Source of the DNA: Candidatus Omnitrophota bacterium
GTDB taxonomy: Bacteria > Omnitrophota > Gorgyraeia > Aquiviventales > Aquiviventaceae
Assembly: GCA_023247255.1 (NCBI GenBank)
Contig: JAHFGV010000005.1
Coordinates: 6,067-70,066, forward strand
Reading direction: 5' to 3'
DNA: 64,000 nt
The translations under genes were made by a program, and so were the position numbers. Below the pieces are notes generated by a model. It did not search any database. It saw only the letters and a program-made list of their open reading frames with translations, and was not told the DNA's origin. Of the stretch, positions 15,724-15,803 are shown piece by piece. Each line of letters opens with the position of its first letter. The stretch's first letter is position 1.

Positions 15724-15803
15724 TGAGGGGCACGGGGAATGGAGTACGGGGAGTGGGAAGACAGGTTTTTTTCCCGCCCCTTGTCTCCCGCCCCCCGCCC
15801 TTT
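15724..15803. repeat. G-tract/C-tract palindromic element upstream of atpD
   Basis: gaggggcacggggaatggagtacggggagtgggaagacagg, then ttttttt, then cccgccccttgtctcccgccccccgcccttt. Same family as 478-558 and 3288-3550. Confidence 0.45.

Follow-up and report, generated by a model that had tools for sequence, protein, structure and literature searches.

Gene order and enlarged spacers of the pyr-nuo-atp region

The window analysed here, a stretch of 64,000 nucleotides (nt) from a Candidatus Omnitrophota bacterium (GenBank assembly GCA_023247255.1, contig JAHFGV010000005.1; forward-strand positions 6,067 to 70,066), was found using Pfam to carry pyrD, pyrF, pyrE, nuoJKLMN, atpZ/I/B/E/F/H/A/G, an antitoxin gene with a weak ParE-like partner, atpD and atpC, in that order. 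The element under study is a hairpin located between the toxin-antitoxin pair and atpD, in which a G-rich arm is followed by seven T residues and a C-rich arm. A first-pass annotation, made from the sequence alone, had assigned it to a family of hairpins occupying the gaps inside the nuo and atp operons. The gene identities and gap sizes given there (nuoJ-nuoK 356 nt, nuoL-nuoM 524 nt, atpF-atpH 167 nt and atpG-atpD 763 nt) were borne out, and the gaps are unusually large, as the corresponding junctions measure 0-100 nt in relatives that share this gene order.

The DNA of the source strain that was examined amounts to ~68 kb, made up of the window and 3.6 kb upstream of it in L001, one of two further assemblies of the same strain. 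The window was identical to L001 and L002, and as there are zero differences among the three assemblies they provide no polymorphism information. An assembly artefact was ruled out by the three identical assemblies, the intact reading frames and the finding of a like architecture in many independent metagenome-assembled genomes (MAGs) and metagenomes.

The palindrome between atpG and atpD

The following features were located in the atpG-atpD spacer.

15724-15803, no strand assigned: G/C heptamer palindrome copy C, the flagged element (sequence, fold and period-7 pattern)
15065-15710, + strand: toxin-antitoxin cassette and duplicated atpG 3' end (Pfam, promoter scan, repeat comparison)
15065-15093: sigma-70-like promoter of the cassette, TTGACA-17-TATCCT (promoter scan)
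15099-15392: AbrB/MazE-family antitoxin of the cassette (Pfam)
15402-15680: weak ParE/RelE-like toxin of the cassette
15680-15710: duplicated atpG 3' end

Copy C consists of a G-rich arm (15725-15765), a T7 loop (15766-15772) and a C-rich arm (15773-15803). Read directly from the sequence, the G-rich arm is made up of about six units of G.A.GGG (GAGGGGC ACGGGGA ATGGAGT ACGGGGA GTGGGAA GACAGG), and the C-rich arm is CCCGCCC CTTGTCT CCCGCCC CCCGCCC. The proposed hairpin is real, and its predicted RNA fold is stable, both alone (-45.4 kcal/mol, z -4.1 versus shuffles) and with flanks (-50.4 kcal/mol, z -2.4). It begins 14 nt after the duplicated atpG stop codon (15708-15710) and the atpD ATG (15824) lies 20 nt past its end, with the atpD Shine-Dalgarno sequence (GGAGAG, 15812-15817) staying free.

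The bulk of the 763 nt gap is made up by the cassette (~650 nt), which was absent from every relative examined. The last 28-31 nt of atpG have been duplicated by the cassette (15680-15707 versus 15027-15054, 89% identical). The long atpG-atpD gap is owed to this insertion and, because the insertion duplicated the atpG 3' end, copy C is the original element of the spacer.

Further copies in the source strain

Three more copies of the G/C palindrome were found, two of which, in pyrD and carB, the first-pass annotation had missed.

476-561, no strand assigned: copy A, in frame within pyrD; G-arm 481-514 (GGGRCRG x5), loop 515-525, C-arm 526-556
3288-3550, no strand assigned: copy B, nuoJ-nuoK spacer; G-arm 3288-3328, C-arm 3511-3550
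L001 1636-1725: copy D, in frame in the inter-domain linker of carB, within the 3.6 kb upstream of the window

Copy B, which had been described as a split copy, is also real. Within its arms, segments 3292-3322 and 3511-3541 show 77% complementarity across a distance of 188 nt, and the arms fold at -52 kcal/mol (z -3.5) when bridged by a tetraloop. The intervening DNA of ~180 nt is AT-richer and has its own small hairpin (CCCTCTCCC AAA GGGAGAGGG, at ~3411-3431).

Copy A codes for EEGQGTGGGGQGGDSSIPLPPVSRPLP, immediately following the catalytic SCPN motif of PyrD. The reading frame is intact, the Pfam DHO_dh match is split into two stretches, and insert-free homologues exist. In the AlphaFold model of PyrD (predicted template modelling score, pTM, 0.81), the insert (amino acids (aa) 132-159) is a loop with a predicted local distance difference test (pLDDT) score of <50, and is predicted to be disordered.

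The architecture of the family is a 5' arm of degenerate GGGGNNN heptamers and a 3' arm that is a matching C-rich array with the conserved core CCCCYTGTCTC.CGCCCC. The C-arms of copies A, C and D have a GCCCC[CT]TGTCTC core in common.

Seven-nucleotide periodicity

The motifs by which the family had initially been recognised were not over-represented. The 10-mer GGGARRACAG gave 11 matches versus 16.5 expected when one mismatch was allowed, and CGCCCCCCGCCC gave 14 versus 15.5 expected with two mismatches, though it is exact in both of the copies that had been cited. The period-7 G-tract pattern GGGGNNNGGGGNNNGGG (≤1 mismatch) gave 18 matches versus 2.97 expected, and 15 of the 18 fall inside three copies (479-556, 3291-3549 and 15727-15757). 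Strict tracts with a lag of 7 numbered 8-9, versus 0-2 for the other lags in the range 4-12, and 8 were observed where 0.07 were expected in dinucleotide shuffles. Tandem Repeats Finder reported period 7 at nine places, including 480-513, 2464-2522, 2581-2617, 3301-3324, 11804-11875, 14107-14135 and 19284-19360.

The elements are therefore, by period, heptamer arrays of at least 3-4 tandem 7-nt units, with two to four loci per unit within the 68 kb, and relatives carry other units. Fold prediction, which had been proposed as a check, showed that all elements fold more stably than shuffles (z -3.5 to -7). None of them fits a curated Rfam family: no match was found over 2400-6400 at E ≤ 1, and two tRNAs and one molybdenum cofactor (Moco) riboswitch are the sole matches in the window at the gathering threshold.

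Different elements in the other enlarged spacers

It had been claimed that each gap contains a structured repeat of this family. Structures are indeed present in each, but a single family does not fill the four gaps, and GATTGTC-type, non-heptamer and cassette elements are found instead.

2452-2630, no strand assigned: TGTGTCA-type heptamer palindrome, pyrE-nuoJ spacer; arms 2464-2495 and 2586-2617, 91% complementary
5861-6325, no strand assigned: two large non-heptamer structured elements, nuoL-nuoM spacer, unrelated to the G/C family
11802-11880, no strand assigned: GATTGTC-type heptamer palindrome, atpF-atpH spacer, of a unit family distinct from the G/C copies
14001-14142, no strand assigned: TGCTATC/GATAGCA-type palindrome; the 5' arm (14007-14033) is the last atpA codons, the 3' arm (14109-14135) is in the atpA-atpG spacer
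14733-14795, + strand: in-frame heptamer tracts in the atpG variable loop, ~aa 199-219
19280-19364, no strand assigned: GATTGTC-type palindrome, second copy, 3' of tRNA-Val
40147-40216, no strand assigned: partial TGTGTCA-type arm with a 59-nt leader, upstream of feoB

Over 81 nt, the two GATTGTC copies share 81% identity and have their variant units in identical order; their flanks are unrelated, and no target-site duplication was found around either. The 3' end of tRNA-Val (19196-19212) is repeated exactly over 17 nt at 19434-19450, 238 nt downstream. The second GATTGTC palindrome lies between the two repeats, an arrangement reminiscent of the integration of a small element at the tRNA.

The TGTGTCA palindrome has a further, inner arm pair (2500-2523 and 2587-2610). 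A 59-nt leader is common to the sequences upstream of nuoJ (2645-2703) and feoB (40158-40216), which are 93-98% identical, and it adjoins TGTGTCA heptamers at both places.

The nuoL-nuoM elements span 5861-6145, with 35-nt outer arms and two inner hairpins, and 6146-6325. Their predicted structure (-245.7 kcal/mol, z -10.9) is without an Rfam match, and the inner stem GGCGTAGC...GCTACGCC is similar to a GRCGTAGCGCTGCTACGCC palindrome family reported from Geobacter. A further motif, TTTTTCAGCAGNCTGCT, has 6 occurrences versus 0.48 expected and was seen in this strain only. Its sites, which include 3559-3575, 5825-5841, 6309-6325 and 11917-11933, lie at the 3' edge of enlarged spacers, 8-29 nt before the nuoK, nuoM and atpH starts. 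In addition, a 34-nt motif right after the nuoJ stop codon (3248-3282) is the reverse complement of one right before atpH (11899-11931; CAGGYTACRGAAAAT..CTGTTTGCTCAARGCT), and is another small dispersed repeat.

Empty sites, filled sites and unit turnover in relatives

The pyrD and atpB homologues were from Candidatus Omnitrophota MAGs, and the closest atpB among GTDB representatives, which do not include the species, was 74% identical. No record of the exact atpD protein was found. The order pyrD-pyrF-pyrE-nuoJKLMN-atpZIBEFHAGDC-citM is kept in most relatives, with the gene cluster conserved over ~19 kb in most of them; in two, conservation continues upstream through pyrB-carB for another 10 kb. 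Empty sites, with 0-14 nt at nuoJ-nuoK, nuoL-nuoM and atpF-atpH, were found in loci L004, L007, L203/L205 and L207. The heptamer units found in other loci were as follows.

L003: ATTGCGG
L010: GTGGAAA
L011: GTCAGAA/GAAGACA
L012: GGAGGCC/CCTCCAC
L013: GGCTCAA
L205: GAGACCR

One unit recurs at several sites within a genome, and different genomes fill the same sites with different units. The recurrent sites are the pyrD loop (~aa 130-136), the carB linker, the atpG loop (~aa 190-209), the end of atpA and the atpG-atpD spacer. The atpG-loop site holds heptamer arrays in L006, L007, L011, L012, L018 and L205. The atpG-atpD spacer is filled in the window, L003, L011 and L205, and in these four genomes the hairpins begin 0-14 nt after the atpG stop codon and stop 20-30 nt short of atpD, so that the ribosome-binding site stays clear of them.

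An alignment of PyrD proteins revealed a variable insert of 20-60 aa at the position of copy A in most homologues and none in a few. The insert peptides are translated heptamer hairpins (e.g. GSRLKAQGSR...SLQPSASSLQP). PyrD of the closest different strain, P0002, is 89% identical and carries an unrelated insert, in which the peptide RQETRDKRQ back-translates to (AGACAAG)n. In the carB gene of L207, the arms are (GGGGCAC)4 versus (GCCCCCC)4, each homogenised to a different, non-complementary unit. This suggests that each arm evolves by tandem-array dynamics of its own rather than under selection for pairing.

Heptamer tracts were also observed in and around the atp region of L066 (Planctomycetota MAG SOJX01000110, 7190-19235; 10 tracts) and L049 (Omnitrophota, 4498-14055; 6 tracts). 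As hairpin pairs are among these tracts, the phenomenon is wider than the source clade.

These data bear on whether the arrays are sites for a DNA- or RNA-binding protein that reads heptamers, which might be a global regulator or be nucleoid-associated. The four to six tandem units per arm resemble proposed regulator sites in Geobacter (PMC2700814), Nostoc (bioRxiv 10.1101/2022.06.06.494920) and Beggiatoaceae (PMC4679880), and the tracts cluster in one large operon region. However, a single 20-kb stretch contains at least four unrelated units, and a given site holds different units from one genome to the next, which is more than any one protein can read. No protein emerged as a candidate, and this explanation appears highly improbable.

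The G/C family beyond the source genome

A scan of metagenomes with the C-arm core returned mostly chance matches and ~10 true copies. In all of the latter, a (GGGGCRY)4-5 arm is joined by a loop to the same ordered C-arm, CCCC(T)GCCCCYTGTCTCCCGCCCCCTGCCCC. One in-frame copy is in an RluD-like pseudouridine synthase found in the NCBI protein set of an Omnitrophica MAG (PIQ83318.1), and in-frame copies in Lnt occupy the same site in two organisms in opposite orientations. The family is also present in carA, in the pyrD and atpG loops and in the carB linker of two further Omnitrophota genomes, and carB-linker copies occur in three genomes. The in-frame copies are free of stop codons and are located in loops, linkers and termini of housekeeping proteins, and the orientation of copies relative to the flanking genes is mixed. 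No copy of the conserved C-arm beyond the source strain was found in 80 named GTDB loci. The 30-aa pyrD insert had one match in an exhaustive HMMER search, and a 55-aa concatenated insert peptide yielded no candidates. Protein searches do not suit the inserts, which are too short and vary too much.

The first-pass annotation had suggested that essential operons were colonised by MITE-like (miniature inverted-repeat transposable element) or REP-like (repetitive extragenic palindromic) sequences. Colonisation is supported, because the same element types recur at unrelated sites and relatives show empty junctions, and the palindromes are dispersed in compact essential operons. The REP-like reading is broadly right, and MITE-like elements are not supported. 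Strict REP sequences are not supported because copies occur in frame inside genes (pyrD, carB, carA, atpG, the RluD-like gene and lnt).

Under the MITE explanation, the elements would be foldback, non-autonomous transposons moved by a transposase encoded elsewhere, with the heptamer arrays as reiterated transposase-binding sites. The conserved order of variant units over ~80 nt in the two GATTGTC copies with unrelated flanks, the conservation of the ordered G/C-family C-arm between different organisms and the presence of the same unit at several sites within one genome are consistent with this, as is a DDE_Tnp_4 transposase gene at 21135-22136. However, although each element is an inverted repeat throughout, there is no target-site duplication at the best-defined copies, the elements are 70-90 nt long without unique internal sequence, and the filling of the same sites by different units across genomes is hard to obtain by random insertion. 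A Pfam scan of 43 window open reading frames (ORFs), a set that does not take in further large ORFs beyond 51.9 kb, revealed neither a transposase with related ends nor a gene of IS200/RAYT type (RAYT, REP-associated tyrosine transposase). Movement by a transposase thus has a low probability.

DDE_Tnp_4 is the only transposase found in the window. In an all-against-all comparison of intergenic gaps, which did not take in the ends of the transposase itself, the gaps flanking it gave only a duplication of the tRNA-Asp 3' end and a borderline match to a TGTGTCA arm (23726-23760 versus 2464-2498, score 30). The 3' part of tRNA-Asp is copied over 38 nt with 95% identity (21069-21106 versus 23793-23830), the copy being 2.7 kb upstream of the gene. 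This pair flanks the transposase gene and an ORF of 177 aa, which together are probably an element integrated at tRNA-Asp.

Order of the arms

The G-rich arm is 5' in 26 of the 33 informative heptamer palindromes (p = 0.0013), and in the G/C type a G-array is followed by a C-array in ~20 loci versus 4 in which the order is reversed. As a palindrome is identical on both strands, this G-first rule is not an effect of the orientation of transcription, and GGGAATC pairs in Xanthomonas have been reported in the same 'convergent' order (PMC4692102). It is possible that it results from extension or fold-back of a G-rich 3' end; it is also possible that a C-rich arm emerging first in RNA, allowing Rho to load, is selected against.

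The palindromes might also be not insertions but scars of break healing, comparable in a bacterium to the addition of telomere repeats and their fusion. Both 3' ends of a double-strand break would be extended with G-strand 7-nt repeats by a repeat-adding polymerase or a reverse transcriptase or, alternatively, a slipped G-rich nascent end would fold back and copy itself, and the ends would then be joined head to head. If true, this would explain the 7-nt unit, the array followed by an inverted array, the G-first rule and recurrent fragile hot spots with lineage-specific units. Telomere fusions of the type (TTAGGG)n(CCCTAA)n are eukaryotic and are made by telomerase and chromosome fusion. The likeness to such head-to-head fusions, a G-strand array followed by its complement with the G-rich arm 5' on both strands and a unit of 6-8 nt, is one of architecture only. 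To our knowledge, they have no bacterial counterpart, and break healing is considered a long shot.

The G-rich arms might also act as G-quadruplex (G4) or i-motif switches, folding into G4 in DNA or nascent RNA with the hairpin as the competing 'off' state. The G-arms of copies A, B and D carry at least four G3-6 tracts with loops of 1-7 nt and, when isolated, are predicted to form G4 (A -32.0, D -13.5 and B -13.0 kcal/mol), and the G-arm is nearly always transcribed first. However, once the C-arm is present, copies A, C and D are still predicted to have the hairpin as their state of lowest energy, and copy C requires a 10-nt loop and reaches just -4.2 kcal/mol. The sister families GATTGTC, TGTGTCA, TGCTATC, ATTGCGG and GGCTCAA, which are in the same positions, cannot form G4, and G4 is therefore not the common principle. 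A G4 switch is accordingly regarded as improbable.

Tests for function at the RNA level

The proposal that the hairpins act as internal terminators was not upheld. The T7 of copy C is the loop, the sequence directly 3' of the stem is CCCTTTGTGATTACGG, and no T-run was found 3' of any hairpin. A terminator scan of positions 1-20000 identified 23 terminator-like sites with none of the elements among them, and copies lie inside reading frames (pyrD, carB and atpG) that need read-through. The hairpins are not terminators. A PyrR-type attenuator, considered for the pyr genes, was rejected, as there is no Rfam match in 2400-6400, which spans the pyrE-nuoJ spacer, and elements are also found in nuo and atp.

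Sense RNA was more stable than antisense in 9 of 20 elements (Wilcoxon p = 0.5), and some elements fold far better as antisense, among them that at 1574-1659 in L003 (sense -25.6 versus antisense -51.7). The lack of terminator features, of Rfam matches and of a sense-strand advantage argues against terminators and RNA-tuned structures.

The first-pass annotation had also raised a role in RNA processing. The hairpins could have been selected as mRNA punctuation within long polycistronic transcripts, where they would be barriers to 3' exonucleases, RNase III/E processing sites or attenuators and would adjust the relative expression of the nuo and atp subunits. The stable stems, the placement of the atpG-atpD hairpins of four genomes 0-14 nt after the stop codon and 20-30 nt before atpD with the ribosome-binding site free, and the restriction of tracts to the highly conserved pyr-nuo-atp cluster are as expected for such a role, and sense RNA is the more stable for copies A (-64.7 versus -51.8 kcal/mol) and C (-45.4 versus -39.8 kcal/mol). 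However, this advantage disappears over the 20 elements, no stem is followed by a T-tract or resembles a terminator, copies are found inside reading frames and in either orientation to genes, spacers of 0-14 nt suffice for close relatives, and arms drift to non-complementary units. Selected punctuation is therefore unlikely, although of the alternatives it is the one to be taken most seriously.

Origin and maintenance of the palindromes

The best reading is that the elements are palindromic repeat DNA of the type seen in cyanobacterial and rickettsial repeats (see below), essentially selfish or neutral. The G/C family is read as one member of a broader class of heptamer-periodic palindromes in this Omnitrophota lineage, similar to the cyanobacterial arrays and to the inverted GGGAATC pairs of Xanthomonas. 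We put the probability that they are tolerated, fast-evolving palindromic repeat DNA arising from 7-nt slippage and arm-to-arm copying at roughly 0.6. Replication slippage of 7-nt units would grow and turn over the arrays, fold-back or template-switch copying would create and refresh the inverted arm, and recombination or some hairpin-specific activity would spread copies between loci. Copies would persist wherever they are harmless, hence the description as essentially selfish or neutral. A palindrome at the DNA level is favoured, with RNA structure as a by-product. As long stem-loops on polycistronic mRNA, the elements may have side effects on mRNA decay or the translation of neighbouring genes, and an effect on RNA stabilisation or processing is possible, but this would not be what maintains them.

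Several observations weigh against this reading. All strict tracts are within the first 20 kb (pyr-nuo-atp) and none is in the remaining 44 kb despite spacers of 300-950 nt, a confinement that purely neutral DNA does not predict, and the estimate of dispersal comes from ~68 kb of the source genome. The elements begin 0-14 nt after the atpG stop codon in four genomes and the same protein loops are occupied across lineages of 60-70% protein identity, and both the spacing and the persistent occupancy could reflect function rather than tolerance. The G-first rule needs a cause beyond the slippage model alone. Finally, neither a mobilising enzyme nor an insertion intermediate nor polymorphism within the population came to light, and the three independent assemblies are identical.

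Other features of the window

A palindromic box, TCCATGACGTNCGTCATGGAAGA, is present four times in spacers (25041-25063, 39818-39840, 43306-43328 and 63281-63303). One box is just upstream of a hemerythrin gene, adjoining a gene for a Crp/Fnr-type regulator (24117-24875), and others are close to feoB and to cytochrome and molybdoenzyme genes. The box is likely to be a regulator binding site.

The region at ~26.9-39.7 kb contains genes for a multihaem cytochrome, cytochrome b and cytochrome c biogenesis. It is followed at ~43.8-51.9 kb by a nitrate-reductase/Nxr-like set encoding a molybdopterin subunit of 1207 aa, a 4Fe-4S subunit, a NarJ-like chaperone and a cytochrome c protein with an EB_dh domain. 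The Moco/tungsten-cofactor riboswitch (53228-53385, 61.6 bits) is ~1.4 kb downstream of this set.

Relationship to known repeats

Heptamer repeats with the units GGGAATC and GGGGA(C/T)T have been described in Xanthomonas and Nostoc, respectively, and a Xanthomonas genome has 70-75 inverted pairs in convergent order (Rehm et al. 2015, PMC4692102). They usually comprise about four units, are mostly located between co-directional genes near stop and start codons, and are transcribed (PMC4692102). A unit with a G tract of at least three, about four units and convergent inverted pairing, as in the published definition, are also found in the G/C family, in which tandem 7-nt units with a G3-4 tract form a G-array followed by its complement, which could fold into a stem-loop or G4. 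However, the units and the phylum are different, the C-arm has the ordered core CCCCYTGTCTC.CGCCCC, and several unit families that are not G-rich share the architecture. Furthermore, coding regions are under-represented among the Xanthomonas and Nostoc repeats, whereas in-frame copies in housekeeping genes are common here.

Among the long simple repeats of bacteria, those with heptanucleotide units form the commonest class (Mrazek 2007, as quoted in PMC4679880). A GGGACCG x4 element has been described from Geobacter metallireducens, where it occupies 49 sites both between and within genes (Aklujkar et al. 2009, PMC2700814). Unlike the Omnitrophota elements, it is a direct fourfold repeat read as regulatory RNA, and no palindromic partner or site-conserved turnover has been described for it.

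The short tandemly repeated repetitive (STRR) sequences of cyanobacteria were reportedly described by Mazel et al. in 1990. STRR sequences and heptanucleotide long simple sequence repeats (Mrazek et al. 2007, as quoted in PMC4679880) have heptamer units that are lineage-specific, dispersed, mostly intergenic and hypervariable among close relatives, and 7-nt slippage is the proposed generator. The elements here are similar in that relatives carry different units, with two to four loci per unit seen in the 68 kb. STRR sequences are mainly direct arrays, whereas nearly every array here is paired with an inverted copy, and the host belongs to a non-photosynthetic candidate phylum.

Rickettsia palindromic elements (RPE), said to have been reported by Ogata et al. 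in 2000, are likewise palindromes found in frame in surface loops of essential proteins with function kept, and also between genes, with no encoded transposase. PyrD carries such an in-frame palindrome in a surface loop, with the protein intact. RPE are 100-150 bp of unique, non-periodic sequence, whereas the elements here are 70-90 bp, heptamer-periodic and subject to unit turnover, and from composition and periodicity homology to RPE families is implausible. REP sequences and the related bacterial interspersed mosaic elements (BIME) are also short, GC-rich, imperfect palindromes in operon spacers, with a species-specific consensus, and can stabilise upstream mRNA. However, they are strictly extragenic, not made of heptamers and accompanied by RAYT, whereas copies are found inside genes here and there is no RAYT among the 43 ORFs scanned.

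No published report of heptamer palindromes in Omnitrophota was found in the literature searched. The present case brings such features together: the heptamer arrays are palindromic, belong to several unit families, sit at conserved hot spots where units turn over, and often lie in frame in core enzymes. Heptamer arrays are among the commonest unexplained bacterial repeats (cyanobacteria, Xanthomonas, Geobacter, Beggiatoaceae), and because the pyr-nuo-atp cluster is shared with sites that are empty or differently filled, the birth, turnover and loss of elements can be traced site by site. The strand-symmetric order, G-rich arm first, is a concrete constraint on any mechanism. The tolerance of in-frame copies, by the catalytic loop in PyrD, in the CarB linker and in the gamma loop of ATP synthase, matters for gene calling in candidate phyla and for protein-family alignments.

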